Below are positions 29,857-57,932 of a stretch of 64,000 nucleotides of DNA, one piece after another. This DNA comes from Acidobacteriota bacterium (GTDB lineage Bacteria; Acidobacteriota; Aminicenantia; Aminicenantales; Saccharicenantaceae), in NCBI GenBank assembly GCA_028749115.1, contig JAQURD010000002.1, positions 145,402 to 209,401 of the forward strand, read 5' to 3'. The position numbers and the translations under genes were made by a program. Positions within the stretch are counted from its first letter, which is position 1; each line of letters begins with the position of its first letter. The notes beneath the pieces are model-generated. The model was not told the DNA's origin and searched no databases. It saw only the letters and a program-made list of their open reading frames with translations.

Positions 29857-30483
29857 CCTATCCGGTTCGAGAGTCAGAAGATATTGTTTGGTCAGCTCTT
29901 GAGCTTTGAGGAGCGGGCCGCCGGTTAACCTGACTTTATTCAGGGGAACGGGGGTAGCGCGAAGCAGTTTCTGCTGAATTGTCCTGGCCTCGGGGTCAAC
30001 CGGCTGGACAAAAGTCTGGGCGAAGAGCGGCGGAAGAGCAAAAAGGCCGATGATGAGGGCAAGCAGAAGCGACGGCTAAGGTAGATGCCGGGAGTCTTCT
30101 GGGCGGCAAAGGCTGGCCCAAGGGCTGACTTTGTTGTGGCATTAAACGGCCCTGCAGTAAGTGGCGAGTTATCTGTAGCAATTTCAATGACTTGAAAGCG
30201 ATAGCCTCCGAAATTCTGGCGATTATACCATCCATCTTTCTTCTCCTGATGTATTTTTTTGTTATCTTATTCTTTTCCTGATGTGTAATATATCTTATTT
30301 CCCGCCGTCCCGGCAAGCCCTTTTTATGCTCTGACCAAACCAAGACCACTTAACACTTTTATGGATTGAATCCATGAATGCCAAAAGCTGTGCATGCATA
30401 TCAAGACTCATAAAGCTATTGACTTTAACTACCATTGACAACCTCTTCATGCTAAAAATATACTGTTCCCGGGGAGGGTAGTT

Positions 30484-30996
30484 ATGATCAAAAGAATAAA
30501 CAAAAGCTCTCTTGAGCGATTCATAAAAAACGATTTACCCAAGAAATTACAAAAAGATCTTCAAGATCTTCGTATCATCAGAGAAGCTGACATTGCCTGC
30601 TGCGTCTATTTCCATCTGAGAAGATTTATAGGTTCAGACAAAAGCCTGAAAGTTTTCGCTGAGAGACCTTCGAAACAGACAAAACATATTGTCGATATGG
30701 TCATTTTTAGAGATTTCCCCAATAAGTCTCCAGATCCGCGTATTGCCTTTGAACTCAAATGGAACCGAAAAAGGATATCGAAAAAGGATAGAGACAGCTT
30801 AGACCAATGCATAAGAAAACTAAACCTGGCAAAGGTTTATTTCATTTCGGTTTGCAAGAAAGACGGAGTAAATAGGGTCATTAAATCGGATTCAGAAAAG
30901 TTTAGGCTTTTCGAGATATATATTTATCCGAATTTATCCCCAGGCAAGTATAAAGAATGGGACGCCAGGCGGGCTAAAGTCAAAGACAAGTTTTAG
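30484..30996 (+). CDS. hypothetical protein (first gene of the AT-rich island)
   Basis: Clean 170-aa ORF in low-GC DNA; no recognisable motif. Confidence 0.4.
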   Translation: MIKRINKSSLERFIKNDLPKKLQKDLQDLRIIREADIACCVYFHLRRFIGSDKSLKVFAERPSKQTKHIVDMVIFRDFPNKSPDPRIAFELKWNRKRISKKDRDSLDQCIRKLNLAKVYFISVCKKDGVNRVIKSDSEKFRLFEIYIYPNLSPGKYKEWDARRAKVKDKF

Positions 30997-31369
30997 TGGA
31001 CTCGATGAAGAGTACCTAATTGGAGGGATGATTCATCGGTCTTTGCTCAAAGATTGACTTGAATTGATACTAAGGCAAGTCAAGTGGCGAGATTACCTTC
31101 AGGAACATAGGTCATAAGAAAAGAGGAAAAAATGACCACCCACAAAAAGCTTATCATGAAGAATTTAAGTTTAGTATAAAAATTTTATGATAGCCAGACA
31201 GCGAACTAAATTTGAAAGGGGGTATACCATTAAAACCAGCAGTATCTACCTGAAATCTATGGAATATATTTCTGACAAAAATAATCGAACGATTTATTTT
31301 TATACTGACCCCATGAGGAGGTGGATACCTCAAAGAGATAGAGTTTATACTGAATAAGGAGGCGTCAGG

Positions 31370-31892
31370 ATGAAGCCTAGGCAATGGAGTTCAGAGGAGA
31401 AGATGGCCATAGTGCTGGAGGGGTTAAAGGGGGAAAAATCGGTAGCTGAGATCTGTCGGGAACACCAGATAAGCCAGGCATTGTATTATCGGTGGCGGGA
31501 CAGGTTTTTGGAGGCAGGTCAGAAGGGATTAAGCAAGGGGGGCAGTGAGGATGAAACGAAGGCGCTTCAAGCCCAGATAGAGAAGCTGGAGAAGTTCATA
31601 GGGCGGCAGACGATGGCGATTGAGGCTTTAAAAAAACTCAAGAGTTAATCTCAGGGAAGTAGTCGAGCTGATGAGGGAGAGAGGGATGAGCCTGAAATCG
31701 GTCTGTGAGACTCTCAGGATAAGCCGGAGCGGGCAGTATCGGAAGGAGAGCCAAAGGCCTGGCTCAAATAGGGATGAGGTTCTGCTCGTTTGAGGAAGCT
31801 GAGGCCAGAGTCGGTGTCAGGATAGAAGATTATAACCGGCTCTATGTGCACTCAGCTTTGGACTATCTAAGTCCTGAAGAGCTCGCTCAGTA
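31370..31892 (+). mobile_element. IS3-family insertion-sequence remnant: intact orfA (HTH/leucine-zipper, 92 aa) plus two orfB fragments missing the DDE core
   Basis: orfA MKPRQWSSEEKMAIVLEGL...EICREHQISQALYYRWR...; downstream frames give LREVVELMRERGMSLKSVCETLRISRSGQY (orfB N-terminus) and EEAEARVGVRIEDYNRLYVHSALDYLSPEELAQ* (orfB C-terminus). Confidence 0.7.
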
Positions 31893-32064
31893 ATGGGTTC
31901 AAACACAGGAAGCTACATCGCAGGGAGCTCAAATATGAACCGGGTTAAAGCCACAGCCTGTAATCCAAACAATATGGACTATTTTTTTAAAAAGAACTCT
32001 ATCTCTCAAAGCGAGAAAAAGTGTCTTGCTTTTCGGGGTTCACTACATAAGGGGAAACCTCCTA

Positions 32065-32838
32065 TTATCTATCATTGCCTTTCTTAGCCTGCTCCTTCAT
32101 ATAATTTCCTGTAAATGATAGATAGTCCACTATATTAAATATTAAATCCAAGGGGTTTACAACCTTATGTTCATCCGTTCCCAAATTTCCAGGGTCATCC
32201 GTTGCAGAAGTAAACAACAACATCTCCATTTCACTAAAACCATATTTAGGCCACCCATAGAATCTTTGAAAAGGTTTATTTCGGTGAACAATAAACTTGT
32301 CTCTAACTAATTTCAAACTTGAGGTAAACCATCCCGTTTGCTCACGAACATATTTTGCATACGTTTCATGGTTACTATAAGGTATATTTTCAGTCCTCAA
32401 GAAAAATTCGCGATGCTTCGTAAAAGAAGTAAAACTTGGCTGTGTGGGTTGATTTTTCAAAAATATCTTTGTTATGGCACTAGCTCTATCTAAAAGAATG
32501 CGACTGTGGATCAGCAAATTATCGAAATCCAGGCCGAGAAAGCGTCCAGTTTCATTTCTTTTAGCAGCAAGCCACCTTTCATGCTTGGTAAACGGTATAC
32601 CCACCTTTCTAGACCAATAAGGACCGTTCCTATATCGGCGCTCTATTGACATGGCTTTCAACAACCTTTCACAACAAAGAATAAAGAAAATATATTGTTC
32701 CAGATAAGAATTTATGGGATCTGCATACCCTAAGTAAGGCGTACGATCGTCTAGGGTGACCAAGTAATTTGATAATGGGTCGTTCTTAATTTTCTTAAGG
32801 ATCTTTATAATATTCATTGGATCCCAAAAAGGAGACAC
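32065..32838 (-). CDS. hypothetical protein (island cargo)
   Basis: 257-aa ORF in AT-rich DNA; no recognisable motif. Confidence 0.4.
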   Translation of the reverse strand: MSPFWDPMNIIKILKKIKNDPLSNYLVTLDDRTPYLGYADPINSYLEQYIFFILCCERLLKAMSIERRYRNGPYWSRKVGIPFTKHERWLAAKRNETGRFLGLDFDNLLIHSRILLDRASAITKIFLKNQPTQPSFTSFTKHREFFLRTENIPYSNHETYAKYVREQTGWFTSSLKLVRDKFIVHRNKPFQRFYGWPKYGFSEMEMLLFTSATDDPGNLGTDEHKVVNPLDLIFNIVDYLSFTGNYMKEQAKKGNDR

Positions 32839-33004: not shown

Positions 33005-33697
33005 TCATATATCTAACAGATACCCGTTCTTTTTAAGCCAGTCTTTATGTTTTTCATAATCTGGCAGCATTAGCTTGATTTTTGCCCAAAACTCCTTAGT
33101 ATGGTTTTTCTCTACCAAGTGAATTAATTCATGCACTACTGCATAATCAATAACTCCCAATGGGGCCATGATAAGACGCCAAGAAAAATTTAAATTTCCA
33201 GAGGGAGAACAAGAAGCCAGCCTTTTTCTTGAATCAGTAATGTTTACCTTATTAAAACTTAATCTCCTTTTTTGGGCATACCACCTGACTCTTTCTGGTA
33301 TCTTCAAACGGGCTGCATCTTTGTACCAGTTAATGATCAATTCTCTTGCCTCCGGTAGCGCTTTGTTAGATATAAAAAAACCTCTGTCAAACTTAATCGG
33401 AAGGTCCTGCTTACCGACAACCTTAAGTTTGTAATAAGCTCCAAGATAAGGGAATCCTTCTCCGTTGACATATTCTTTTGCCCTGAATAATTGGCGCTCT
33501 TTAGCTAATTCATCACTTTTTTTATTAATCCAGGCACTATTTTTTGCCAAAATTTTCCTTATAGTCCCGTCGTCGGTATTGGCGGGAACACGAAAGATTA
33601 GCTTCCCGCCCGAGCCAATCTTCAAAGACATAGACTTTCTGTTAGTTCTTACAATTTCTATTTCAGGCATTCTTCTTTCCATATATATGATAGGCAA
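33005..33697 (-). CDS. DUF45/YgjP-like (M48/WLM-type) zinc metallopeptidase, hsdR-associated
   Basis: HExxH motif in VVHELIHLVEKNH; this family is typically encoded directly downstream of type I hsdR. Confidence 0.7.
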   Translation of the reverse strand: MPIIYMERRMPEIEIVRTNRKSMSLKIGSGGKLIFRVPANTDDGTIRKILAKNSAWINKKSDELAKERQLFRAKEYVNGEGFPYLGAYYKLKVVGKQDLPIKFDRGFFISNKALPEARELIINWYKDAARLKIPERVRWYAQKRRLSFNKVNITDSRKRLASCSPSGNLNFSWRLIMAPLGVIDYAVVHELIHLVEKNHTKEFWAKIKLMLPDYEKHKDWLKKNGYLLDI

Positions 33698-36600
33698 GCT
33701 CTAATAGTTTCTGAGCAATTTCATTCCTTTTGGTGTGGATCTTGCCTCCCCATCCCGGCTCGTTTCCTTCTGCACTTCCTGATCGTTCAAGATGCTTGGC
33801 CTTTAAATTCAGCAAATGCGATATTAGATATGATTTTAACCGTTTTTGTTTTGTATAATTTTCCCAAAAATCGACAGACCTTATTTCTTTTTTAACCATT
33901 TCAATAATATCCCTGGTTATATCTATAAGAAAACTCAAATCCTCTTGTGATAGTTGGTCTATGGAATCCTTCCCATATATTTCTTGCTTCAGGAGGCCAA
34001 AAAATGGCATCTCTTTTTTAGGATCAAAACCAAATGTTTGCTCGGCTTCCCTGCCCTTCTTTAGCTTATCCCTTATTATTTCCAGTCCAGCTGCCAGCTC
34101 CTCCCAATTATTTTTATATTGTTCTAAAATTGAGTTTAATTTATCAGAAAATCTTTGATAGAACTCCGGGTCTTCCTCGAAGTGCTTTTCTATATAGTCT
34201 TTAGTAGCAAATTCTAGTTCCAGTGCTCTAGCTTTTGCTGTCCTCGCCTTTACTTGTTTTATAAAAGCGTCATCAAGGAGAGGCAATGGGGCAACTTTTG
34301 GGTTCACTCCTTTGGAAATAAGAAATTCTTCCACTATCTCCCTTATCTTTTTGCTGGCATCCTTTAGGCTAAGCTTATCATCTCGAAATCTGTTGCGAGC
34401 TGATTCTTTTATGAACTCAATGATTTTTAAATCAGTAACATATTTTAAAGCCTGGGGATCCGGCAAGACCGCATCCATTAATTTTTCAAAATTCCTTACC
34501 AGAGATATAAATTCGTTTCTTGTCTCTTCATCTACCAACAAGTCAATACACTCTTCTAAATTGTTTCTCCAGTCACTTACTCCGTAACTTCCAAAAAAAC
34601 TTTCAATTTGATTGTGAACATATTCAAGCTGATCAAAACCTTTCGCCTTGTTTATGATAACTTGAGAAATTTCCTCTATATCTTCGTCAGCATAAATAGC
34701 CAGTGCTTCCTTCAAATGTTTAAGAACACCGACATAGTCAACTACAAAGCCGCAGCTCTTATTTTCATAGACCCTGTTGACCCTAGCTATTGCCTGAAGC
34801 AAATTGTGTTCTTTGATTACATTATCCAAATACATAACCTGCTCCAATGGCGCATCAAAGCCAGTAATCAACATGCTTTGGACGACAATTATCCCTGTAT
34901 CCCCATTTATCCCACCTTCTGCAGTCTTACCAAATGGCAATTTAAAGCTCTTAATTAAACGCTCATGAAGATTGGGGTCGGTATAATCATGGTATTCTGG
35001 TGGGTCGTTAGGGAGACCAGAAATTATGACAGCCACCTTAAGCCTTTCCAGCTGTGCTATGTCCATTCCCAGAGAGCTTTCCCGGCATAATTTCTCGATC
35101 TTTCCCCTTAGAGCTTCTTCTAAAGCTTGTTTATATCTGATAGCCGCAAGCCGTGATACAGCTACAACCTGGGCTTTAAATCCGTTTGGAAAAACATGCT
35201 CAACATAGTGATCGATCATGTCCCTGGCTTTATCTCTAATTACTTTCTGATCTTCAAGATAAGCCCTCCACGTATAGCGGCCTAAGAGTCTTTCTTTTTC
35301 ATCTGGACCGACCTGAGCAAAGACATCTTCAAATTTGGCATTAGCTGCCCCTTCATTTGTAAGCTCAGCAGAGTGGACTCTCCCCTCATAGACAATTTCA
35401 ACTGTCACCCCATCCTCAACCGATTGCTTAATCCCATAGCGGTCAATATAGTCGCCAAAAGTCATTTTAGTTTTTTCTATTGGCGTTCCGGTATAGGCGA
35501 TTCTTATGGCGTTGGGCAATGCCCTATTTAAATTGGCACCCAAAAGGCTATACTCAGTCCTGTGAGCTTCATCAATCATTATTAGGATATTCGATGAGAT
35601 ATTTAAAATGGGAAACTGAGTTTCTAAGTCTCTTTCCTGAACTTTGTGAATCATTCCCATAACTAAATCTGGTGTATTTGTCTTTAAAAGTTCCTTAAAT
35701 TGGCTAATGCTATTGGCGAGGTTGACCGTGAAGCCTACACTTTTTGAGGTCTCTTTCAGCTGTCTTTCCAGGTCTTTTCTATCAGTGATAAAAATAATCT
35801 TATACTTGGCCAGTTCCGGATCATGATACATGGCTCTTACAGTAAACATCATAGTCAGGGACTTTCCTGAGCCCTGGGTGTGCCAGATAATACCCCCCTT
35901 ATCCTTTGGATCGGTTTTTTCTTTAAGACGCTTTATAATTTTTTTGACAGCTCTAAACTGCTGGTACCTTGGTGTAAGCTTTATAATCTCGCCTTTGTGA
36001 TCTTCTCTGAAAATCGTGAAATTATAAAGGATGTCTAACAAGTTATCTTGGGAAAGCATACCCTGCACAAGCACTTGTTGACTGGTGAGATTTCCAGCGG
36101 CTCCAATATCCGAGAGGGCAAAAGGATAAGGGTCTTTCCATTCGACAAAATGCTCGTGCTCGCCAGTGATCGTGCTATATTTAGCTGTTTGATTAGATGT
36201 TGCAATCATAAAAAGGTTATACCAGAAGAGCTTTTCATTGCCTTCCTTTTCGCCCCTTTTATTGGCGTACCTCCAAAGTTGGGTAATTGCTTCAGAAACA
36301 GGATCGGCTATGGCCGGAGACTTACATTCAATAACGACCAGTGGCAATCCATTTACAAAAAGCACGATGTCCGGGATGATATGTTTTTCAGTACCTGGGA
36401 TATTAACCTTAAATTGTGAAATTGCCAGAAAAGAATTGTTCTCAGGTCTTTTAAAATCTATATACCTGACAGTAGGACTCTTTTCACCAGTCTTTCTGTT
36501 TTCTGAAACGGACATATTTTCTATTAAGAGGTCATGAATCTCTCTATTGGCCTCCAGGAGAGAATGTCCCTGAGGGATCGTAATTCGCCTAACAACCTGG

Positions 36601-36860
36601 GTTATCTGATCTTCTTCAATCCATGCGTTTATTCTTTTTAGAGACTTTTTTAGCTCGTCTTCGAGAATAATCTCTATGAATGCCTCCCGAAGTTTAACCA
36701 CCTCACCATATCTAGGTTCATTCTGGTCGTTAAACGATAATATCGGCCAGACCTGCTCAGGATCATCTTTATTTTGCCTATAAATTCCCCACCCGAGTCT
36801 CTGCAGCTGGGCTAAGAGCGCGTTTTCTACATAAAATTCTTCGTCTAATTTCTTATACAT
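33663..36860 (-). CDS. hsdR: type I restriction enzyme R subunit
   Basis: N-terminal PD-(D/E)xK (IPDIVLFVNGLPLVVIECKSP); SF2 helicase motifs GSGKSLTM (I) and DEAHR (II); 1065 aa. Confidence 0.9.
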   Translation of the reverse strand: MYKKLDEEFYVENALLAQLQRLGWGIYRQNKDDPEQVWPILSFNDQNEPRYGEVVKLREAFIEIILEDELKKSLKRINAWIEEDQITQVVRRITIPQGHSLLEANREIHDLLIENMSVSENRKTGEKSPTVRYIDFKRPENNSFLAISQFKVNIPGTEKHIIPDIVLFVNGLPLVVIECKSPAIADPVSEAITQLWRYANKRGEKEGNEKLFWYNLFMIATSNQTAKYSTITGEHEHFVEWKDPYPFALSDIGAAGNLTSQQVLVQGMLSQDNLLDILYNFTIFREDHKGEIIKLTPRYQQFRAVKKIIKRLKEKTDPKDKGGIIWHTQGSGKSLTMMFTVRAMYHDPELAKYKIIFITDRKDLERQLKETSKSVGFTVNLANSISQFKELLKTNTPDLVMGMIHKVQERDLETQFPILNISSNILIMIDEAHRTEYSLLGANLNRALPNAIRIAYTGTPIEKTKMTFGDYIDRYGIKQSVEDGVTVEIVYEGRVHSAELTNEGAANAKFEDVFAQVGPDEKERLLGRYTWRAYLEDQKVIRDKARDMIDHYVEHVFPNGFKAQVVAVSRLAAIRYKQALEEALRGKIEKLCRESSLGMDIAQLERLKVAVIISGLPNDPPEYHDYTDPNLHERLIKSFKLPFGKTAEGGINGDTGIIVVQSMLITGFDAPLEQVMYLDNVIKEHNLLQAIARVNRVYENKSCGFVVDYVGVLKHLKEALAIYADEDIEEISQVIINKAKGFDQLEYVHNQIESFFGSYGVSDWRNNLEECIDLLVDEETRNEFISLVRNFEKLMDAVLPDPQALKYVTDLKIIEFIKESARNRFRDDKLSLKDASKKIREIVEEFLISKGVNPKVAPLPLLDDAFIKQVKARTAKARALELEFATKDYIEKHFEEDPEFYQRFSDKLNSILEQYKNNWEELAAGLEIIRDKLKKGREAEQTFGFDPKKEMPFFGLLKQEIYGKDSIDQLSQEDLSFLIDITRDIIEMVKKEIRSVDFWENYTKQKRLKSYLISHLLNLKAKHLERSGSAEGNEPGWGGKIHTKRNEIAQKLLELAYHIYGKKNA

Positions 36861-36877
36861 TTTTCGTCATTTTTTTA

Positions 36878-39208
36878 TCATTTTAATTGAGCCTTTGGGG
36901 CATCATCGACAACTTCATCTAAAATTTCTTGGACTTTAGACAAAGCCTTTTTTGTAAGATTCTGCCCCCTTTTAATTAAAAAGCTATCTTTATCAGCTCT
37001 TATTTCTATTATCTCATTACCCCGTTTGATCTCAATATAGGGCTCCTCAAGGTCAGTGGAATATATATAATCAGCTCTGTCTTGAAGTCCCTCTCTCCCT
37101 TTTAAGTGACGATTAAATAGGTCGTATGTATATAGCTCAGCATGCCTGCCACTTAGTTTTTCTTTCATTAAGAGGTATATCTTAGGAAAGTTTTCATGGT
37201 TAAGTTCGTCTCTATCAGCTCTGATTTTCCTATTTTTACAATAGGCCAAATTGTTAGGATTTTTTATAAAATACTTACGCCAATCGTCTTCCCCAAACTT
37301 CTCGATTATTCTGTTCAGATCCTCCTCGATATTCTTAGAAGTTAGCTCATCCAAAAGATTTTTTAAATACTGACTTTTAATATCATCATTAAACACCTTC
37401 CTCCAGTTGTCCATCTTAGCTCTAAGACCTCCTTCAAAATTGCAAAAGGTATAGTTCATACCATCCTTGACCAGATAATTGCCTTTGGCCAATAATGCTC
37501 TCTCAAAAAGGTCATTTTTCCCGCGATCACCATTACTAAATAATTCATTATTACTAAATAATTCCTTCAGCCTTTCTCCATAATATCTGAATTTCTTTTG
37601 GTCATATCCCCCCTGTCGATCTTTGGAATATTCCAAGATAAAGCCGATCTGTCCGTTAAAATAGCTATGGGTTTCAACATCAACAATTAGTTCTTCCCAA
37701 TTCGGATCTTCCATAATTAACTTTACTTTTTTCTTTTCCTCATCTGTCTGTATCCCTAAAAAGAAGTCAACTTTGGAGTCACCGCTTAGGAGATATTCAT
37801 AAATGTCGTTTATATGATTACTAAGCTCTTTTAACGAGCGGATAGCCCTATAAAAATCCATAGGCTCATCGATTCTGGTATTGTTGATTAAATTCAGAGC
37901 TATTCTCGCCCACCTCTTGAACATCTCCTTATTATTCTCGTTTAAGGCATGATCCCTTATAAAATATTTATACAGTGCATAAAATCTGCACCTTTCCTGG
38001 TAATTGATGGTGCTCCCGCTGTCGTCACCCCTATGAGGTTTAAGAAAGTCTAAAAATATATTCTTAAATGGCTCAATTAGCCTTCGCAATACTTTATGTT
38101 TTCCAAATAAATTGCTAACACTTTCACTATAATGCGTTAAACAATCCAAGCATAAAACGATATTCCTTATATTTTCTTCTGTAAATGTAGAGACTTTTAG
38201 ATCAGACTGGCCATCTCTAGTTTTTTTTTCGTCATCCCACATTTTAAATATTTCATATGAGTCCATAATATCTTTTTCCTCTGATATAAGATTTTCATGA
38301 TGAGCCTCAACATTTAAAAGGAAGACCAGGTTTTCAAGAAAGCTGAAATACTTCTTGTCAACGAATTGCGGACTTATCTTCTGACTTTGCATTTTTTCTA
38401 TTTTCCAGAAAATTTCTAACCATTCATTATCAAATTTCTTTTTTTCATCATTAGTTAGATCTTTAGAAAATAACGCTTTAAAATGTTCCAAAAAAGTCAA
38501 TGGCTTCCCCCTGGCATTCATTTTGATATAAAGCTCGTCAGTAAGAGCAAACTCTTCAAGCGGAAGGAAGTAAAATTCAATCACTGATTGTCCGCCAATC
38601 AGCTTATCCAACAATTCATTTTCCTCTTTTCCAAAGTTTTCTTGAATGATATCCAACATATTTAGCATGTTTGAAACTGTTGGATCTCTCTCCCAAGACA
38701 GAAAGAACCATTTGCAATTTTTTATCGCCTTGCTTATCTCTTTTCCCTTTTCATACTGGACACCCTCGTTTATTAACTTTTTACAAAAATCCTGGGAACT
38801 TAATCTAGTCTCATAACTGAATCGTGATAGACGATCCTTTAGATCCTTATTAAGTCTGTCTTCTTTCAAGGCAAGATACCAATGAAGAAGCCAGAGAGTG
38901 GTGAGCCGCTGCTGGCCATCAATAGGTATCAGTTTTCCTTGATCTATTTTTCCATAAATAAAGTCTAAACTCAGCTTCTTGCCATTTTTGATGCTATCGT
39001 ATATGGCATTTATAAAAGCATCGGCAATTCTTCTCTCTAGAGGTCTCCCTTGGGCATAATCCCTTTGAATTATAGGGATTTCAATTTGATATTCAGCAAT
39101 TAAAGACCAAAAATTGGTTTTCATTTTGGCCCTCTCTATTAGATTCTTTGCCTTTTTCATCTTTAAAATATTCTTCCAATGTTTCGACCATTGACTCAAG
39201 ATAAGCAT
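36878..39208 (-). CDS. DUF262 (ParB-like/GmrS-type) domain protein, type IV-restriction-like
   Basis: IPIIQRDYAQG ... IDGQQRLTTLWLL DGQQR motif; likely true start is the Met at about 39124 (MKTNFWSL...); inserted between hsdS and hsdR. Confidence 0.75.
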   Translation of the reverse strand: MLILSQWSKHWKNILKMKKAKNLIERAKMKTNFWSLIAEYQIEIPIIQRDYAQGRPLERRIADAFINAIYDSIKNGKKLSLDFIYGKIDQGKLIPIDGQQRLTTLWLLHWYLALKEDRLNKDLKDRLSRFSYETRLSSQDFCKKLINEGVQYEKGKEISKAIKNCKWFFLSWERDPTVSNMLNMLDIIQENFGKEENELLDKLIGGQSVIEFYFLPLEEFALTDELYIKMNARGKPLTFLEHFKALFSKDLTNDEKKKFDNEWLEIFWKIEKMQSQKISPQFVDKKYFSFLENLVFLLNVEAHHENLISEEKDIMDSYEIFKMWDDEKKTRDGQSDLKVSTFTEENIRNIVLCLDCLTHYSESVSNLFGKHKVLRRLIEPFKNIFLDFLKPHRGDDSGSTINYQERCRFYALYKYFIRDHALNENNKEMFKRWARIALNLINNTRIDEPMDFYRAIRSLKELSNHINDIYEYLLSGDSKVDFFLGIQTDEEKKKVKLIMEDPNWEELIVDVETHSYFNGQIGFILEYSKDRQGGYDQKKFRYYGERLKELFSNNELFSNGDRGKNDLFERALLAKGNYLVKDGMNYTFCNFEGGLRAKMDNWRKVFNDDIKSQYLKNLLDELTSKNIEEDLNRIIEKFGEDDWRKYFIKNPNNLAYCKNRKIRADRDELNHENFPKIYLLMKEKLSGRHAELYTYDLFNRHLKGREGLQDRADYIYSTDLEEPYIEIKRGNEIIEIRADKDSFLIKRGQNLTKKALSKVQEILDEVVDDAPKAQLK

Positions 39209-40958
39209 CCCTATCTTGTTTTTCCCATTTAACTGTTTGTTCGGAATTCTTAGAAAAATATTTTAAAAAGACATTTTTCGTGCCTATGGGAACAAAGCCA
39301 CCCTTTTTATCTATTTCTATAATCTTTTCCCTTTTGATGGGGAATATATTGTTACTTAGAGCAGAGTTATCATGACTAGAGAGGAGAGTCAAATTATCTA
39401 TTGAATGAATATTGATTTCATCAGAAAATAATTTGTATATTGTATCTTGTATTTTTTTAAATGTATTTTCGTCTATTATTTTCTCCTTTAATAAATCTTC
39501 AATATCTTTGGCCGCTACCAGATATCCATTGTTTTCTAAATATTTCAGTTGATCAGCAAGAAGAAGTTTTCTTTGATTGCTATTTTTTATAGTTTCTGAA
39601 TTTTGGGCATGAATGTGCTCTAGAGTCCATTTTTGTTCGACAAACTTATTAAAAGAGAACCTTGTTTCGTGGCTATCTTTTGCGATTAATATGTTAAATA
39701 ATAAAAGAACTTTCCTTATATCTTTATAATCTCTATCATATTCAAGCTCTCTTAAATAGTTACCGACACTATTTTTGTCCTGGAATTGGATACTTTTCTT
39801 AATTTCGTTTCTTATCCAGTCTTTAAATTCAACTTTGTCATAACTTTGACAGCATTTTATAATTTCCTTAATTTGAGTATCCGAATGGATTAGATAACCA
39901 ATTAGATGATAATATTCATCGTTATAAAACCATTCATCAAACATTCTATGATATGTCTTAACTTCATCCCATAGGCTATCCCGGGCTAAACCTTCTGATG
40001 CAATAATTTGGCCGTTAATAACGTCTATCTTTTTGGATATAAGTTCATTGAATATATAGAACGTATAATAAGGATCGATTAACTTATTTACTTCAATATC
40101 CACCAGCTTTTCATATTTATTAGCAATTAGGTCAAAGATAAATTCAATCCTAGTAGGAATATCATGTTTTTGCCTGTTTAGGAAATACCAAAATTTATCT
40201 GCCCGTAACGCACTTTCTATACTTTCCCATTCGTAGGCTCTTTTGAATTGGTGGTTCTCTCTATCTTCCTCAGATTCTTTAATAAATAAGATTGCCTTTA
40301 TTAGTTCGGCACTGGTCAGTGGTATTTTTCCCATATTTATTCTAGTGAATATTTCTGCTGGATCTTTGACCGCTTCATCATCTTCCGCCTCATACCAAAT
40401 AAATCGCACATTATTCGCTAAATCCCGGCCATTTTTTCTGTCAACCTTTATAAGAGCATTTGCAAAATCAGCCTTTGTAATCCTTTTTTGTTTTATATTT
40501 TCTTCAAACCAGTTCTTAATACATAAAAAGGCTTTGCTGATATAATAATAATCTATATTGTCTTTATCTTCTGTTATGATATCTGAGATCTTTCTTAAGT
40601 AATCTTCACTGCCCGGCCTGGTTTCATATTTTAATTGATAAATATTTTCAATATAGTAATCCTCCTTCAATCTATCCTTTAGAAAGGTTAAAACCAGAAA
40701 TATCGTTGTTAGCCTCTGCTGCCCGTCTATAACCTCATATTCATTCTGATTATTATTGTGCTTTTTGACGACGAGAGGCTGAAGGCAATAAAATTCTCCG
40801 GGTTTCTTATTATATCTACTTTGAAATTCTAAAATATCGTTTAATAGGTCAAGCACCTGCCTTTCATCCCATCTGTAACCCCGCTGATAAGACCCAATGA
40901 TGAATGTCTTGTTGAACAATTCGGGAATTGATATTAATTTAATTTGCGTCTGTGTCAT
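39093..40958 (-). CDS. GmrSD-like fused DUF262-DUF1524 type IV restriction endonuclease
   Basis: N-terminal SYQRGYRWDE ... IDGQQRLTTIFLVL (DUF262); C-terminal WTLEHIHAQN ... NLTLLSSHDNSALSN (DUF1524 His-Me finger-like). Confidence 0.75.
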   Translation of the reverse strand: MTQTQIKLISIPELFNKTFIIGSYQRGYRWDERQVLDLLNDILEFQSRYNKKPGEFYCLQPLVVKKHNNNQNEYEVIDGQQRLTTIFLVLTFLKDRLKEDYYIENIYQLKYETRPGSEDYLRKISDIITEDKDNIDYYYISKAFLCIKNWFEENIKQKRITKADFANALIKVDRKNGRDLANNVRFIWYEAEDDEAVKDPAEIFTRINMGKIPLTSAELIKAILFIKESEEDRENHQFKRAYEWESIESALRADKFWYFLNRQKHDIPTRIEFIFDLIANKYEKLVDIEVNKLIDPYYTFYIFNELISKKIDVINGQIIASEGLARDSLWDEVKTYHRMFDEWFYNDEYYHLIGYLIHSDTQIKEIIKCCQSYDKVEFKDWIRNEIKKSIQFQDKNSVGNYLRELEYDRDYKDIRKVLLLFNILIAKDSHETRFSFNKFVEQKWTLEHIHAQNSETIKNSNQRKLLLADQLKYLENNGYLVAAKDIEDLLKEKIIDENTFKKIQDTIYKLFSDEINIHSIDNLTLLSSHDNSALSNNIFPIKREKIIEIDKKGGFVPIGTKNVFLKYFSKNSEQTVKWEKQDRDAYLESMVETLEEYFKDEKGKESNREGQNENQFLVFNC

Positions 40959-40979
40959 TAATTTCTCCTTATTTGCTCT

Positions 40980-42176
40980 CTAAAGATCATTAACTCTCAC
41001 CCTGCCAGTCAATAAGTCTTCCATCAGCCCTCTTTTTATCCGCTCTAATTTTGCTTTATAAGCCTCTTCCTTTTCAATAACTTCATCTGCCTGAGAAAGA
41101 ATTCTAGCGATATGTCGTTGCTCATACGCAGAAGGGACAGAAATTTCTAGGTTAGAAAACTCTGAAATCCAGAAACGCTTATGTTCACTACCTGGATTAT
41201 AATTCAACAACTGTATCATATTATAAAGGAAAAACAAGCTGTTCCTATCATCTTTTAACCTCAATAGCTTTAATGCTGATGATTTCACTTTGAATACAAA
41301 AGAGATATATCTGCTACCTGTAGTAAAATCATCAAAGATAATAACTGGAATATTTTTAAAAACGCCGTCTTCTTCATTCGTATATCCCAGAATAAATGTC
41401 TTTCCTGCTGTTAAAACTGGAACGCCGAAACGTTCATCATAGTTTTCAGTTTTTACAATATATTTAGTTGGCTGTTCATACTGCAAAAGCTCTCCTAACT
41501 TTTTTATCTTCCACTCCTCTGGAATTCTGCCGAGGGGGGAATCTTTGAATTTGTGCGTTTTTTCACTTCTTATATGTCCATTTTCATCAATGCCTTTTGT
41601 CAACAATTCTTGCATTAAGCCTTGTTTTAGGCGATTATACTTCTCAATAAGGGCATCGGTTTTATCTATTGCATTATCAACCGTTTCAAGAATTTCAGCT
41701 ATTTTGCGCTGCTCAGAGCTGGATGGAAGAGCGATATATAAATTAGAGAATTCTGAAATCCAGAAACGCTTATGCTCACTACCCGGTCTAAAATTCAGAA
41801 ATTGCATTGTGGCATAAAGGCAATATAAATTATTCTTATTGTTCCTTAGCCTCAAGATTTTTAAGGCCGATGATTTCACTTTGAAAGGAAAGGTGATATA
41901 TCTACTTTCTGTAGTAAAATCGTCAAAAATAATAACAGGGATGTCTTTAAAAACCGATTTATCTTCATCTGTATATCCTAAGATAAATGTTTTCCCCGCG
42001 GTTAAGACTGGAATGCCAAACTGTTCATCGTAATTTTCACTTTTGACGATATAATTGGTCGCCTGCTCATATTTTATGACTTCGCTCAACTTTACTTTCT
42101 GCCACCCTTCTGGCAAGTAATTCATTTCTTCATTCTTAAATATCGTGATTTGTTTCATATGAAAATAACTTATCAC
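40980..42176 (-). CDS. hsdS: type I restriction-modification specificity subunit with two near-identical target-recognition domains
   Basis: Two roughly 170-aa TRDs (KLSEVIKYEQATNYIVKSENYDEQFGIPVLTAGKTFILGYT... vs KLGELLQYEQPTKYIVKTENYDERFGVPVLTAGKTFILGYT...) separated and followed by the conserved coiled-coil spacers. Confidence 0.85.
   Translation of the reverse strand: MISYFHMKQITIFKNEEMNYLPEGWQKVKLSEVIKYEQATNYIVKSENYDEQFGIPVLTAGKTFILGYTDEDKSVFKDIPVIIFDDFTTESRYITFPFKVKSSALKILRLRNNKNNLYCLYATMQFLNFRPGSEHKRFWISEFSNLYIALPSSSEQRKIAEILETVDNAIDKTDALIEKYNRLKQGLMQELLTKGIDENGHIRSEKTHKFKDSPLGRIPEEWKIKKLGELLQYEQPTKYIVKTENYDERFGVPVLTAGKTFILGYTNEEDGVFKNIPVIIFDDFTTGSRYISFVFKVKSSALKLLRLKDDRNSLFFLYNMIQLLNYNPGSEHKRFWISEFSNLEISVPSAYEQRHIARILSQADEVIEKEEAYKAKLERIKRGLMEDLLTGRVRVNDL
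41021..42101. repeat. internal direct duplication (about 500 bp x2, roughly 75% nt identity) encoding the two TRDs of hsdS
   Basis: Protein-level near-identity of the two halves; DNA copies at about 41606-42101 and 41021-41531. Confidence 0.6.
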
Positions 42177-42187
42177 CCCTCCCCACG

Positions 42188-44740
42188 TTAAAACTCTTGA
42201 TAAAAGCCTAACTTTTTTAAAAACTCGTCGAGCTTTCCTACTTCTTCATCCCTTGCAGCTCTTAGCTCAAGCAAAGATATTTTATATTTGTCCCACAGGT
42301 TTTCAAAAATCTTAATTATTCCTTTTTTCTCTGCGTTTAAATATCTATGGAGTTGATCAGCCAGAAGTTTGTAAAATTTTTCAAGAATCAAAGTTTCCGC
42401 TTCTTCATCTGTCAGCGAATTTCTTTTTTGATCAATCTTGCCTTCTTTTATCTTAATTAATTCTTTAGTGTCCTTATCTTGTTTATAAATACCTTCTAAT
42501 TCTTGGGTCTTTTGTTTAAGTTTCTTTTTCCAATCGTTTAAAGTCTTATTTTTGCTGCTTATCTTTTCGTGCAGTTCCCACAACTCATTTATCGTTTTCC
42601 TTGCTAAATCCGATATCGGATCGCCGTTGAACTTGGTTACTGAAGAAACTAAAGATTTGTTCCATTTTTGCTTTGACGGTACAAGAAGGATATCTTTTAT
42701 CTGCTCTTCCAAATAATCCATAACTCTATTAGCAGTTTTATCTCCTTGGCTCTCTTCATCCCAGTCATCTATCTCTTCTAAAAGTTCGCCTAGTTCCTCT
42801 TCAATTTTAGCTATCTTTGTTTCCAGGCCATCTATTTCTTCAGCTTCTTCTTTAAAATAATTTTGCTTGATCATGTCATCATCTATCAAGTTTTTGCTCC
42901 AACCGGCAGAGGTAATGGTTTTAAAGTCATATTTTAAATTTTCCCACCAGTTAGCAAACAAGCCAGAAACCTTGAACTCATCGAGTGCACCGAGCTGGAT
43001 CATTTTGTCCTTAAGAAGGTTCATGGCCATGTCTCTAAAGGCCCAAAGGTTATTGTTACCCTGACACTTTTCAATTTCAGGCTTAATTTCGTTCCAGAAT
43101 TCAGATAGGCAATTTAAATACTTGTTAAATGTGTCCTTTAGGCCTTCTGAAGACTCAACAACATCTCTTATCTTGTTCTTATCATCAATCTCAGACTTGA
43201 ATCGCCACCTACCTTGCGATACTGGTTCAAGAATAAGTTCGGGTGATATAGAAAGCTTTTTAAAGCTTTCAGCTTGACTATATACTTCTTCTTCCGGTAC
43301 CCAGCCCTCAATATGGGCTTTAACATTTTCTGGCTCAGGATCTGGGGAATTGTCTACATATCGTCGAATGTTAAGATTAAAATCGTTTTCTTCAATCTCC
43401 TTAATATCCACAAGTTTTGAATACTTTTCTATTTCTTTTTTCCCCTCGAAAACAGTTACAATCTTCTCAATATCTTCAGGTCTAAGAAAGTTCTGGTTTC
43501 TGCCTTCACCATACTCTCTATCAGCATTGATAAAAAGAATTTTATTTCTTAGATTCTCTGGTTTATTTTTGTTGATAACAATTATGCAAGCTGGAATGCC
43601 CACATTGTAGAAAAGCTTGGCTGGTAAACCAATAATAGCTTCGATGAGGTCATCCCTAACTATGCCCTCCCTTATGACCTTTTCGTGACCTCCCCTGAAA
43701 AGAACTCCATGAGGCATAACACTGGCCATGATTCCTTTTTCTTTCAAACTGGCTATCATGTGCTGAAGGAACATCAGATCCGCTTTTTTCCCTTTTTCAG
43801 GTGTAAATCCATATTTAAATCTGCTTTCATATTCCATATTGGCCCTGGAATAATTCAAAGAGAAAGGAGGGTTCGCCAGCACTCTGTCGAACTGTTTTAT
43901 ATATCCATTTTCTATAAAACGCGGATTGACCAGTGTATCTTCGTTCTCGATGTGGGCATCGGGAATGTCATGCAGAATCATATTCATCTTGCAAATTGAC
44001 CAGGTCACTGGATTTGATTCCTGCCCATATAATGCTATGTTCCTTGGATTTTGCCCTTGGCCTTCTACATATTGTCTAGATTCGATAAGAAAGCCGCCTG
44101 AACCTACCGTTGGGTCATATATGGTCATCCCTTCCTCTGGTTTAATCAGTCTAACCATTAATCTTTTCACCTGCGGGGGAGTGTAGAATTCGCCTCCCTT
44201 TTTTCCGGCAGAGTCAGCAAAATCCTTCAGTAGATATTCGTAAGCAGCTCCTAAGAGGTCAGGAAACTCAAAATCATCATTAGTAAGTCTATACTTATTA
44301 AAATGATGGATTAGGTCAATAAGCTGCTGGTCTTTGAGCTTGGTTCTTCCCTTTTTTACATTGAAATCTATATGCTTTAAAACTCCGTCGAGCTCTGGGT
44401 TGACCTCTTCGACTGCAGCGAGGGCTTTGTTTAGCTCGTTGCCGACATCCACCTTAAGGTTAAGTATTGTTTCCCATCTTGCACGTTGCGGCACAAAGAA
44501 TGCATCGCCATAAATATTTTGGTCTTCAATAATTTCTTCGAGCTCTTTGCCAGCATAGCCTTTTGACTCATATTCTTGTTTAAGTTCCTGTTGCTTTACA
44601 GTAAATACGTCTGAGACTCGCTTTAAGAATAACATGCCAAAGATGTATTCCTTATATTCGGAGGCATCCATCTTGCCCCTGAGAATGTCAGCTGCTTTAA
44701 ATAGATGTGTTTCTAACTGGCGGAGTGTCAGCTTAGGCAT
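42188..44740 (-). CDS. hsdM: type I restriction-modification DNA methyltransferase subunit (N6-adenine) with long C-terminal coiled-coil extension
   Basis: HsdM N-terminal domain; SAM-binding [10 protein letters not shown]; catalytic NPPF ([10 protein letters not shown]); 850 aa including roughly 330 extra K/E-rich residues. Confidence 0.9.
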
Positions 44741-45029: not shown

Positions 45030-45695
45030 TCAACCCTCGAGGACCCGCCCTCCTTTATCAACCCAATAAATTTTAAAGGGCAATAACTTTTTTCTGAACC
45101 ACTCCACTTTCATTAATAGATTTTTGTAGGTGGTAAATCCAGCAGGAAGGGCAATACCAAAATCTACTTCTTGAGACCTGTCACCCCAGAAAATCAGGTC
45201 GAATATCGCTTCTGCGAAATAATGCCTAGCCTGAGCATGCCTGCCCGTCTCTGGATATCCTTTCACGCTAATCCATATGTTCCTTCCCCTTGGATCCTGG
45301 GCGATAACATCTATTCCTTGAGAGCGGGTGGCCGTATCAGAAAAGCTTATTATTTTATATCCCTCTCTTTTTAGCCAGTTGGTCAATTTCACTTGAATAT
45401 TTCCTTCCCAAAACCATGGCTTAGCAAAAGCGTTTTTTTCTCGCTCTGTAGAAATTTTATTTTTCGGCTCAACAAGATAAGAGGAGCCCAGATTTAATTT
45501 GTTTACCTTCTTATTCTTCAGGCAACTACAGCAAAGAGCTTTAGGCCGTAAAATCTTACCTTTCATAGCCAGAGAACGGCATACGGAATTTACTTGCTGT
45601 CTTGGGCCAATTCCGCTTTCTCTTGAAAGACAATCATCACAATAGCCTTCATTATTTTGGCTCAAAAATTCAAGTATTTTTTCTATATTGGTCAT
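45030..45695 (-). CDS. hypothetical protein (221 aa), Cys-rich N-terminus, possible nuclease-like C-terminus
   Basis: 13-bp gap to the upstream gene; N-terminal CDDC ... CCSC cluster; C-terminal GIDVIAQD ... WISVKG weakly reminiscent of Mrr/PD-(D/E)xK folds. Confidence 0.45.
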   Translation of the reverse strand: MTNIEKILEFLSQNNEGYCDDCLSRESGIGPRQQVNSVCRSLAMKGKILRPKALCCSCLKNKKVNKLNLGSSYLVEPKNKISTEREKNAFAKPWFWEGNIQVKLTNWLKREGYKIISFSDTATRSQGIDVIAQDPRGRNIWISVKGYPETGRHAQARHYFAEAIFDLIFWGDRSQEVDFGIALPAGFTTYKNLLMKVEWFRKKLLPFKIYWVDKGGRVLEG

Positions 45696-45708
45696 GTGTC
45701 ATAGCTTC

Positions 45709-46935
45709 TTATTCAAGTATTTTTTTTAAGATCTCAAAAACTTGATTTTCTCTGTTCCTGGTTACCCTTATAGAAACATCCTGGCTGTGACAAACCTTTC
45801 CGGGCCCAATAATTCTTGCACTTATATATCCGCACCCCTCAACAGGCACTAGAAGACGGAAGCGAAATTTTGAAGAACTGCTCCCTTCTAACATTCTCTT
45901 TTCAAAAAACACTTCTAGGACATCGGGACATCGGCTGAATTCTCTTATAACCTGTCTCATTTCAGGCGGGAGATCATTAATGTTTTCGATCCGCCTCTCA
46001 AATATCGTATTGTCCCCCTTTGAAGTGATTCTTATATCCCTGGGATAATCTAGAAGAACTATTTCCTGTGATTTAATTAAAGGTTCTTTTTGGAATTCCT
46101 GAGACCTTTTATTCTCGCTCAGCTCATTTTTTTTCTTTTTTGGCTCATCCTTAGGATACCCCGCAGGCGGGAAAGGCTTATTAGTAAGTAATACCTTATC
46201 ACGCTCTAAAAAAAACACCTTTTCTGGCTCTATAAGTCTAATTTTTGACTCTTCATTTCCAAGAATATGATCACGGGCCAGTTCACCCAGAGTAGAGAGT
46301 ATTGTGGCTCCTGCATACTGTTCTCCGAACACATGAAGCACCTCAACCTTAGAAGAAATGCGATCCCAGTTTAGAAGGCTGCGGTAGGCTTCCTGGCCGG
46401 TTAAATCAAATAACCTGACAATCTCAAATTGTCCTATATAAGAAAGCATTATTGACGTTAAGAACTCATCTTTAGCCCATATCGCCGTTATATCAGGATG
46501 ATCTTCAATATCACAACTATAAACCTGAATAAGCTCTTCAGGTAAAAGCATTCCATAAAGTGCTGAAATTATCAGAATATGGTGTGGTGCCTCTTCAAGA
46601 ATCCGATCATTTTTCTCCTTGACCGCGGTATAAAATCTTCCAGCATAACGGCTGGCCGCAGACATATAAATTCCGGGCTTTGCTGATCTGCCTCCAAAAT
46701 CCGGGCCTGGAAAAAGTCTCGCATTGAATTGCATCTCCTTGAGATTCAGACCATCCCGACTCAAGGAACCGCTTTTAATAATCTCGAGAACTCTCAATCT
46801 TCTTCTTATGAGTTCACCAGCTATATTAAATGAGATGACCTTCGATATCGAAGGCGCTTCCTTATCATAATCATATTCCCCTTGAACTTTCTGATTTGAA
46901 CAAACCGTGACAATGAGTATATGGCTTTTATTCAT
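45709..46935 (-). CDS. YaaA/DUF328-like domain protein with about 200-aa C-terminal extension
   Basis: N-terminal 170 aa aligns with E. coli YaaA signature blocks: ILIVTVCSNQK ~ LILISPAKT; YAGRFYTAV ~ FKGDVYTGL; HILIISALYGMLLPEELIQVYSCDIE ~ [25 protein letters not shown]. Confidence 0.5.
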   Translation of the reverse strand: MNKSHILIVTVCSNQKVQGEYDYDKEAPSISKVISFNIAGELIRRRLRVLEIIKSGSLSRDGLNLKEMQFNARLFPGPDFGGRSAKPGIYMSAASRYAGRFYTAVKEKNDRILEEAPHHILIISALYGMLLPEELIQVYSCDIEDHPDITAIWAKDEFLTSIMLSYIGQFEIVRLFDLTGQEAYRSLLNWDRISSKVEVLHVFGEQYAGATILSTLGELARDHILGNEESKIRLIEPEKVFFLERDKVLLTNKPFPPAGYPKDEPKKKKNELSENKRSQEFQKEPLIKSQEIVLLDYPRDIRITSKGDNTIFERRIENINDLPPEMRQVIREFSRCPDVLEVFFEKRMLEGSSSSKFRFRLLVPVEGCGYISARIIGPGKVCHSQDVSIRVTRNRENQVFEILKKILE

Positions 46936-47386
46936 ATGTTATCGATCCATTAATTGACCTAAGCTTTCATGCTTCTTTTAATAATTAGGCAAAGAAATCA
47001 GGTCCCGGCACCACCGCCTTTATATAAAATAATTTTTCTCGACCCGAAAATCCTCTTCTGAGGTGATTTTTGGGGCGAAAGTTAACCTTTCTTGTTGCCA
47101 TTACTTTCCTAAAAACGGGCCTTTTTTCTTCCTTGAAGAGTAAAACCTCGAACTCAATTGCCCTTCCATTTATCATTAAGATAATAGGATAGAAAACCGA
47201 TTTTAGTCAACCAGGACCATTTTTATCCAATTTGAGATATAGTAACCAAGAAACACCGGCTATTGATAGGGAACGCCTTCGTTCTGTTGCCAGCTATCAA
47301 TAAGAATAGAAATCTATGAAGTTAAGAGATTTGTAATTCGAAAGATGACTTTAGTATGGAATAGCCTTTTATGTTTTGATCTATTT

Positions 47387-47872
47387 TTACATCTCTTTTC
47401 TCTTTAGTGCTTTTTCTATTCCCTTCATTTCTTTACTGTGTTCCCGCATTATTTCTTTAAGTATACGATTAATATCTGCATCCCGAGGCACTTTCCCTTT
47501 TACTCGCGCCCCCGGTACCCTAACCAAATGGGTAACAAGGGTTTCTATATCTCTTAAATAATCGACTCGCTTTATCCTGAAAATGACAAAACTATCCCAT
47601 TTCCCGGCATGGCGATCTTTCAAATGCCAGTTAATACGCCTAAATAGGTCAGTGGTCAATCCAACATAATATAATTTATCCTTGCGATAAAGGGCATAGA
47701 TTTCTGAATATCCTTTCATTATTTCCTTAAGCCGCTTTTTAAATACTGGATTGCCAAAAATACTATAGGGAAGCTTCTTTGACATGCCTTTAATCAAGGC
47801 ACCCTTAGTCGTCTTTTTTTTGCTTTTCGGTATAGTTCCCTTGCCAACTTTTTTCCCATTTCGTTCATTCAT
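47387..47872 (-). CDS. GIY-YIG nuclease family protein with Lys-rich N-terminal tail
   Basis: GYSEIYALYRKDKLYYVGLTTDLFRRINWH matches GIY-(x10)-YVG with downstream Arg/His; alternative start at Met52 (47719) would give a canonical roughly 110-aa GIY-YIG protein. Confidence 0.65.
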   Translation of the reverse strand: MNERNGKKVGKGTIPKSKKKTTKGALIKGMSKKLPYSIFGNPVFKKRLKEIMKGYSEIYALYRKDKLYYVGLTTDLFRRINWHLKDRHAGKWDSFVIFRIKRVDYLRDIETLVTHLVRVPGARVKGKVPRDADINRILKEIMREHSKEMKGIEKALKRKEM

Positions 47873-52457: not shown

Positions 52458-53475
52458 AGATAGTCTCTTTTAATCTAAAAAATAAATTTGCTTTTAAGCT
52501 TCATAACAGGAATAAGAATTAATGTTCCAATTTTGCCTTTCTAACCATTATATGAAATATAATGTGCTAAAAAATGGATGTCAACACACTGCCTCATTCA
52601 GTTAAGATGAATTATCGAGGGGGGGACTATAATAGCCAAAAGTAATTGTATTGCCAGCTGCTGACAACAGCTGGAAGATTGGCCGGGCAAGCCAGTTAGT
52701 TTTTGCAATTTGTATGAGCTTTATATAGCCATACGGAATAGTTAAATTAAAATGAGAGTAGCCATGGGAAAGCATACCATATATAAGATTTTTTCTGCCC
52801 AAGTTACAAGGGAAACCTCTGTCTAATAAAGAAGGTTATTAAACACTGAAGATATGATCGGAATTCGCATTAAATGGCTAGCCATTTAATGCTATAATCC
52901 CATGGATTTAGACATATAAAAACAGGGTTTACATTACGCACTCGATGGCAAGAAGAATTTTATGCTAATTTAGAAAAGATTTTAACTGCTTTCAGCTAGG
53001 AATTCATATAACGGTTTGAAGGAGGCGGTAGCACGGATTATTTCGTCCTTGAAACTTTCGTGTTCCATCTCCGGATAATCCTTGAAGAAATATCTGGTTC
53101 TGATCATTAGCTGACCGTTGTAACCTTTCTTGCGGGCAATGGCGCTGCAAGAATTCCAGATAGATATTAGGCAATTTGTTTCTTAGCTCAAAGAGCTGGC
53201 TTTCAAACTCACGGAAAAGATTATCATCCTGGGTCGTGTTTTTTATTCCATTTTTCTTCTTGACAACTGCCCGCCGGCGAATTATTTTTAAAATTGAACG
53301 GTTAGTTAACAGGGGAAAAGCGATGCGCCTCGGGTATAGCTGTCTGATCAGGGGAGAATTATCGGAATTTCTACATTTCCAGCGGGCTTTTTTCTAAATA
53401 TGGCTCTGCCTCGGGGCAATTTTGTTCAATTTAGTTGATCATTTTGCCCTGGGTCAGGCCGCAGGAGGTAAAGGG

Positions 53476-54936: not shown

Positions 54937-55027
54937 CTGCCTCAGGTCAGTCAGCAATCCATCCATGGGTTTAGCTGACATGCATTAGCCTCAGTAGCAG
55001 ATTAATATCGTCCTGTTCGATCGCAAT

Positions 55028-56277: not shown

Positions 56278-56349
56278 TTCAATATACCCTATCGGTTCTA
56301 CCGCTAGAACATCTTCTGCCTCTGGCCTTCTGACCTCCTCGCTGCTTTT

Positions 56350-57924: not shown

Positions 57925-57932
57925 TTTTTCTC

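Follow-up and report, generated by a model that had tools for sequence, protein, structure and literature searches.

Homologs of the GmrSD restriction enzymes keep close company with type I restriction-modification (R-M) systems: type I R-M domains are their most enriched neighbours, DUF262 genes cluster with GmrSD genes, and RloF has been noted between hsdS and hsdR (Machnicka et al., PMC4619093). GmrSD-like genes often sit inside Hma and type I systems, and 96.7% of embedded genes share the orientation of the host system (Payne et al., bioRxiv 10.1101/2024.01.29.577857). In Vibrio cholerae, the TgvAB genes of VPI-2 (VC1767/VC1766) lie between hsdS and hsdR; TgvA, encoded first, contains DUF262 only, TgvB, encoded second, combines DUF262 with DUF1524, both genes are needed, and the target is glucosyl-5-hydroxymethylcytosine (glucosyl-5hmC) (PMC11411939; bioRxiv 10.1101/2024.04.05.588314). 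GmrS1/GmrSD2 of E. coli ECOR17 is the equivalent doublet, for which both genes and residues E582/H583 are required, and three doublet architectures occur among the 20 commonest enterobacterial clusters (PMC12373910). Here, we describe a pair of DUF262 genes between hsdS and hsdR in a 64,000-nucleotide (nt) stretch of DNA from an Acidobacteriota bacterium (contig JAQURD010000002.1, positions 145,402 to 209,401 of the forward strand; hereafter, the window).

Like TgvAB and the ECOR17 doublet, the window pair consists of two adjacent, co-oriented and overlapping DUF262 genes with a DGQQR motif, only one of which encodes a DUF1524/HNH His-Me nuclease. The order is reversed. The DUF262-only gene comes first in TgvAB and ECOR17, whereas the nuclease-bearing gene comes first in the window and in every other locus of its lineage that we surveyed (80/80 and 64/64, below). 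The nuclease-less partner is also larger, at 748 amino acids (aa) versus 483 aa for ECOR17 GmrS1, and features an extra C-terminal module. Our interpretation, which we consider reasonably likely, is that the locus holds two separate defence modules in one operon and that the pair is a split GmrSD-family restriction enzyme directed against hypermodified phage DNA.

An obligate gene pair between hsdS and hsdR

Six tightly packed minus-strand genes (hsdM, hsdS, the 621-aa gene, the 748-aa gene, hsdR and ygjP) lie within positions 33005-44740 of the window, and all six open reading frames (ORFs) are intact. The initial annotation had described a type I operon with two DGQQR/DUF262 genes between hsdS and hsdR, and this holds at the following positions:

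42188-44740, minus strand: hsdM, a long-form type I N6-methyladenine (m6A) methyltransferase of 850 aa (Pfam, TIGR00497, PADLOC MTase_I)
40980-42176, minus strand: hsdS, a specificity subunit of 398 aa with two related target-recognition domains (Pfam Methylase_S)
39093-40958, minus strand: a GmrSD-type subunit of 621 aa, with a DUF262 NTPase/sensor, a helical linker and a DUF1524 His-Me finger nuclease (GmrSD_N, motifs)
36878-39124, minus strand: the nuclease-less DUF262 partner of 748 aa (GmrSD_N, start fixed by the Shine-Dalgarno sequence, identity to P0001)
33663-36860, minus strand: hsdR, an intact restriction/translocase subunit of 1065 aa (Pfam, PADLOC REase_I, motifs)
33005-33670, minus strand: ygjP, a DUF45/YgjP-like metallopeptidase (Pfam YgjP-like, 175.6 bits)

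The second DUF262 gene is present as annotated but not at the 776 aa first assigned to it, a length at which its start overlaps the upstream gene by 116 nt. Because the ATG at 39124 is preceded by the Shine-Dalgarno sequence GAGAGGG and its product is identical to the database protein P0001, we take the true product to be 748 aa. The start of ygjP is most likely the ATG that overlaps the hsdR stop in ATGCCTGA, rather than the TTG at 33697, and the gene then spans 33005-33670. The arrangement of the cluster is consistent with a single transcription unit, since neighbouring genes overlap or are 11-21 nt apart and sites resembling promoters or terminators are not enriched over shuffled sequence. 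The whole cluster falls inside a low-GC island at approximately 31-52.5 kb (guanine-plus-cytosine fraction 0.32-0.40 versus about 0.43-0.55 elsewhere in the window). PADLOC made no system-level call for the DUF262 pair in the window.

The association of the two DUF262 genes was examined in both directions. A forward check, anchored on the 748-aa family, covered 80 loci from GTDB species genomes that span Bacteroidota, Campylobacterota, Firmicutes, Proteobacteria, Spirochaetota, Planctomycetota, and others; a 621-type gene lies immediately upstream on the same strand in all 80, mostly with an overlap of 1-35 nt. A reverse check, anchored on the 621-aa family, covered metagenome contigs that continue for at least 1.5 kb downstream, and the 748-type gene follows immediately in 64 of 64 loci. 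This reciprocal co-occurrence leads us to regard the pair as one obligate two-gene unit.

Pairwise divergence, compared across 14 loci in which the pair is embedded in a type I operon together with the window, reinforces this view. The 621- and 748-type proteins diverge together (rho 0.83, Mantel p about 5e-4), and the two separate type IV insertions that had originally been proposed are better described, given this value and the fixed gene order, as a single module. HsdM, HsdS, HsdR, and YgjP are likewise inter-correlated (rho 0.75-0.86, Mantel p about 5e-4), but no significant correlation links the pair to this type I set (rho -0.04 to 0.25). Because the two genes diverge together and independently of hsd, we take the pair to be a mobile cassette that has repeatedly been placed in the hsdS-hsdR junction; because they do not co-evolve with the type I genes, the link between the two is one of co-location and probable co-transcription rather than an integrated machine. 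The composite attack on unmodified and modified DNA put forward in the initial annotation would be a reasonable analogy with TgvAB and BrxU/BREX. The result offers a clear example of "embedded" defence genes behaving as independent cassettes that land in the hsdS-hsdR junction, and by this analysis the embedded pair is not part of the type I enzyme.

The genomic context of the pair is variable. Among 56 genome loci with adequate flanks, the order hsdM-hsdS-[pair]-hsdR-ygjP recurs exactly as in the window in 14; hsd genes lie near the pair without embedding it in 7, and 35 have no hsd genes. The neighbours of 49 non-embedded loci are mixed defence-island genes; no third component recurs, and dnd/ssp genes are absent.

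Obligate pairing of two genes that are probably translationally coupled would also suit a toxin and its regulator, in which the 748-aa protein restrains the 621-aa nuclease until an infection cue and the outcome is indiscriminate DNA damage and abortive infection. The ECOR17 doublet is grossly toxic on induction (PMC12373910), and TgvAB causes partial growth inhibition at high multiplicity of infection with some phages (PMC11411939). We nevertheless consider such a system unlikely here. The placement of the nuclease gene first and its nuclease-less partner second is unusual for antitoxin-toxin logic; NTPase motifs are kept in both proteins, which better fits co-operating enzymes than an inhibitor and its target; and TgvAB itself is judged to act directly on phage DNA.

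The nuclease-bearing subunit

The interpretation of the pair as a split restriction enzyme depends on the 621-aa protein, which by its architecture appears to be a genuine GmrSD-type enzyme. Its annotation as DUF262-DUF1524 is well founded. GmrSD_N matches at 113 bits and, although GmrSD_C reaches only 22.0 bits against a cut-off of 23 in the window protein, 19 of 27 family members have a detectable match to the latter domain (best E 4e-10). In 73 homologs, conservation reaches at least 90% for the NTPase-domain motifs (Q25-R26, D78GQQR82, N208-G-K) and for the His-Me motif (E447-H448, N522, N531, N536), whose catalytic residues are invariant in the family and intact in the window, where the stretch from N522 reads N-L-T-L-L. 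Both proteins of the pair keep the NTPase motifs; only the 621 family keeps the His-Me motif. The suggestion that DGQQR proteins might instead be ParB/Srx partition proteins without a nuclease finds no support: the TIGR00180 model, whose cut-off is 58.45 bits, gives the 621-aa protein 17.7 bits and does not match the 748-aa protein.

Searched against solved structures, a profile of the 621 family matches DndI over its full length (9jfl, E 6.6e-15), followed by SspE (E 6e-11) and BrxU (E 0.003), and it aligns onto the nuclease motifs of both DndI and SspE. That these two proteins are the closest solved relatives, with BrxU far weaker, raises an alternative in which the pair senses a host mark. 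It would read a self modification, for example the m6A added by HsdMS or some other host mark; NTP hydrolysis on marked DNA would release the complex, while unmarked foreign DNA would be nicked or cut, and the pair would serve as a second effector for the methylation system. DndI and SspE work by exactly such logic (PMC11662687; PMC13251355), and one quarter of the loci sit in a modification-restriction operon. We find this explanation doubtful, however, as 35 of the 56 loci have no hsd genes within their flanks, neither dnd/ssp nor recurring methyltransferase genes are found among the neighbours, and the pair lacks the co-divergence with HsdM or HsdS (rho about 0) that would be expected if it read their mark. 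The window likewise contains no dnd/ssp modification genes.

The nuclease-less partner and its C-terminal module

The 748-aa protein is composed of a DUF262 domain (residues ~1-250), a helical core (~250-480), and a C-terminal module (~480-748); partners across the family range from 670 to 920 aa. GmrSD_N (75 bits) is its sole Pfam match, and PADLOC and NCBIfam likewise return nothing besides DUF262. The NTPase motifs are conserved (Q20-R21, D69GQQR73, M202-N-x-R-G). Beyond them, the family conserves W405, R407, N411, Q459, E462, E463, K466, R542-A-L-L, and W574, along with E484 in 73 of 73 members and H486 in 62 of 73.

The C-terminal module has no recognisable counterpart. Confident AlphaFold2 models were obtained for the full-length protein (pLDDT, the predicted local distance difference test score, 84) and for residues 475-748 (pLDDT 78.6; pTM, the predicted template modelling score, 0.80). 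In Foldseek searches of the PDB, the full-length model gave nothing significant, with BrxU appearing only at E 2.5-4, and the best matches of the C-terminal model were PH-like domains aligned to its terminal beta-rich part at E about 1; against BFVD, the C-terminal model matched uncharacterised proteins only, at E 0.05 or worse. A profile of the 748 family found no real match among PDB sequences. HHalign of the 748-aa protein against the C-terminus of the 621 family gave a probability of 0.15%, and the hidden Markov model (HMM) match of its C-terminus to the nuclease region of ECOR17 GmrSD2 scored -0.6 bits. The absence of an obvious DUF1524 from the longer paralog, as initially annotated, is thus borne out by Pfam, PADLOC, NCBIfam, HHalign, HMM, and Foldseek comparisons.

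A degenerate DUF1524 was also considered for this region, since R542-A-L-L falls near the N-L-x-L-L metal-binding motif in two weak alignments. The idea was dropped on the strength of the HHalign and HMM values above and the disagreement between the alignment registers.

A profile of the last 274 residues matches 1,128 clusters (50% identity) among 1.84 billion representatives. Almost all are proteins of 700-880 aa in which the match lies at the C-terminal end, so the module is essentially confined to the 748-type architecture. Within the wider 748 family, variability peaks in the last ~150 residues, which often cannot be aligned. A recognition, sensor, or regulatory role fits the C-terminal region better than an effector role, because neither a known fold nor a nuclease motif can be recognised in it and its sequence differs among family members. 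The distinct effector that had been envisaged for the C-terminus of the longer protein accordingly finds no support, given a predicted structure and searches without any catalytic fold in the most variable part of the family.

A further alternative is that two independent single-gene type IV enzymes were inserted side by side by chance, the longer one with its own novel effector domain. DGQQR DUF262 domains are present in both proteins, and the C-terminal region of the longer one is conserved in places, notably at E484, which never varies, and for the most part at H486. Chance insertion is very improbable in light of the fixed-order co-occurrence (80/80 and 64/64), the overlapping frames, and the shared divergence (rho 0.83). 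Furthermore, searches detect no catalytic fold, nuclease or otherwise, in the long protein, conservation within the family is lowest at its extreme C-terminus, and its C-terminal module is essentially restricted to one architecture.

More specifically, and as a tentative proposal to which we give limited weight, the 748-aa protein may be a swappable specificity subunit whose conserved DUF262/helical core docks on the 621-aa nuclease while the variable C-terminus reads the DNA modification. If so, target range would be diversified by exchange of the C-terminus, as HsdS does for type I enzymes, in a modular sensor-plus-nuclease design not yet described for GmrSD-family enzymes. If the pair is active, the module could reveal a new mode of recognising DNA modifications.

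Proposed mechanism

We propose that the operon encodes two modules. In the first, HsdM, HsdS, and HsdR, with YgjP as a regular companion, form a complete type I R-M system. The second, the mobile two-gene cassette in the hsdS-hsdR junction, would be a GmrSD-family enzyme split into unequal subunits. The 621-aa subunit would contribute a DUF262 NTPase/sensor and the only nuclease of the cassette, the DUF1524 His-Me finger; the 748-aa subunit, with its second DUF262 NTPase domain, helical core, and variable C-terminal module, would supply recognition or regulation. Together they may assemble into a hetero-oligomer that replaces the intertwined homodimer of single-chain GmrSD enzymes (BrxU, SspE), with nucleoside triphosphate binding and hydrolysis at both DGQQR sites gating the 621-aa nuclease. 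The most likely target would be hypermodified phage DNA, such as glucosyl-hmC-type cytosines, and the cassette would thereby complement the type I attack on unmodified DNA. It is by comparison with TgvAB, ECOR17 GmrS1/GmrSD2, BrxU, SspE, and DndI that we suggest complex formation, a dependence on both genes, a gating function of the NTPase sites, and the probable target.

Two considerations weigh against this model. The first is sequence distance. TgvAB and ECOR17 sequences were taken from the paper supplements, and the comparison covers these two doublets; a distant relationship to the other enterobacterial doublets, CLS_016/017 and CLS_018/019, is conceivable. By BLASTP, the ECOR17 pair scores 79-238 bits against the TgvA/TgvB families, which places it clearly in the TgvAB lineage; the window pair scores 23-64 bits against the TgvAB and ECOR17 proteins, over a DUF262 core of only ~90 residues. 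Judged by these alignments, the window pair is not orthologous to TgvAB or to the ECOR17 pair, and transfer of their mechanism and target is therefore by analogy only. The second is polarity. DndI, the closest solved relative of the 621 family, responds to a mark on host DNA and attacks DNA that lacks it, so that either a modified or an unmodified target may be recognised.

The type I host operon

The type I genes that carry the cassette have the sequence features of a complete system. HsdM contains Pfam domains HsdM_N (105.7 bits) and N6_Mtase (359 bits), exceeds the TIGR00497 cut-off (253.5 bits versus 242.75), encodes NPPF at residue 290, and is spanned over its full length by the PADLOC MTase_I model PDLC03031. 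That model also covers a C-terminal extension of ~380 aa (residues ~470-850; window 42188-43333), for which residues 470-850 have no match in Pfam or PDB sequences. In HsdS, Pfam Methylase_S matches in two stretches, and the two halves of the protein are 62% identical (116/187), a similarity that points to a bipartite recognition site of symmetric or palindromic form. HsdR is uninterrupted: it features HSDR_N, SWI2_SNF2/ResIII, T1R_D3-like, and T1RH-like_C domains in Pfam, PADLOC REase_I covers residues 8-1016 of 1065, and both nuclease (D164...E177-x-K179) and helicase (GSGKS330, DEAH430, QAIAR689) motifs are present. Disruption of the hsd genes, the other possibility that could have undone the initial annotation, is thus not observed, as hsdM, hsdS, and hsdR are all intact. 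The system is complete in gene content and is predicted to methylate host DNA and to cut unmethylated DNA.

A long HsdM (802-909 aa) and a ygjP gene after hsdR are found in each of the 14 type I operons with an embedded pair. In its co-divergence with HsdM, HsdS, and HsdR (rho 0.78-0.86), YgjP behaves like a fourth component of this subfamily, and we group it with the type I genes.

Neighbouring genes

The nearest relatives (77% identity) feature the same operon adjoining the same GH127 gene, with different HsdS alleles. In these related contigs (loci L081-L083), HsdS proteins of 397, 415, and 434 aa occur in near-identical operons, and specificity therefore appears to be undergoing exchange. 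The same three loci harbor a PARIS-like pair (AAA_15/AAA_21 and DUF4435) between ygjP and the GH127 glycosidase gene, at 15172-17362. At the equivalent position of the window (30000-32838) are unannotatable ORFs instead, such as a 257-aa ORF at 32065-32838, and this difference implies cassette turnover at one chromosomal hotspot. A PARIS-like pair and a changing HsdS beside the same operon are typical of a defence hotspot. The closest homolog, P0002 (77% identity, L081-L083), is labelled as coming from a "Methanofastidiosum sp." metagenome-assembled genome; since its contig shares with the window a GH127 neighbour of bacterial appearance, mis-binning may explain the archaeal label.

Other ORFs surround the operon. 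Just upstream of hsdM, at 45030-47872, are three minus-strand ORFs that PADLOC does not match: a 221-aa ORF with no matches, a 408-aa ORF with weak YaaA/DUF6884-like similarity, and a 161-aa ORF whose GIY-YIG match falls below threshold. The low-GC island also encodes, at 48612-52457, a 1281-aa protein that scores 33.2 bits against a cut-off of 34 for nSTAND NTPase 5 and has no PADLOC match; it may be an uncharacterised STAND-type defence gene. Beyond the island, the region 53422-58502 contains genes for a radical SAM/SPASM protein and a 160-aa ORF, with weak matches to prokaryotic viperin (pVip) and PD-T4-9_C, respectively, along with a HicB antitoxin-like gene.

Distribution and comparison with known systems

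Two-protein GmrS/GmrSD systems were recognised in 2024-2025, and the sole lineage tested is the one formed by TgvAB and the ECOR17 pair. The window doublet belongs to a lineage with more than 8,000 homologs in many bacterial phyla. Its enterobacterial members, found in Klebsiella, Yersinia, Enterobacter, Pectobacterium, and others, are all named "DUF262 domain-containing protein". The Enterobacter member WP_069303584 falls in CLS_082, a rare cluster of two members that is not one of the 20 examined in PMC12373910; the signature motifs of the window lineage were not found among the TgvAB survey-table entries listed; and neither the window operon nor the Kluyvera pair matched any complete E. coli genome by megablast or blastn. 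If active, the pair has been missed by current defence-system catalogues and would add a barrier to modified-DNA phages and to phage therapy.

Several described systems share parts of this organisation. The single-chain enzymes Eco94GmrSD/GmrSD-CT596, BrxU, and HEC-06 have the same DUF262-helical linker-DUF1524 architecture and catalytic motifs as the 621-aa protein, and they are likewise often embedded in operons, in their case BREX, Hma, or type I R-M. They act alone as homodimers, whereas the 621-type gene never occurs without its nuclease-less partner (64/64 loci), a genomic context that speaks against the 621-aa protein working as a self-sufficient single-chain enzyme. DndI and SspE, the best profile matches of the 621 family among solved structures, are single-protein, phosphorothioate-sensing effectors, but dnd/ssp genes are absent from the window and from the recurrent neighbours of its lineage. 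The hsdS-hsdR niche is also occupied by RloF and other "R-linked ORFs" of Campylobacter jejuni type I loci and by PrrC/RloC (PMC4619093; bioRxiv 10.1101/2024.01.29.577857). RloF is described as a single DUF262 gene, a comparison made here by description only, and PrrC/RloC are anticodon nucleases unrelated to the window pair.

The TgvAB/ECOR17 systems and the window lineage, for their part, have in common that they are embedded between hsdS and hsdR, more often stand alone, and are widespread across phyla. As judged from sequence and gene order, the cassette described here is a version of the two-protein GmrSD-like systems embedded in type I operons that is not orthologous to the known ones and has a reversed gene order and a larger partner, and the locus represents a second doublet lineage set apart from TgvAB and ECOR17.

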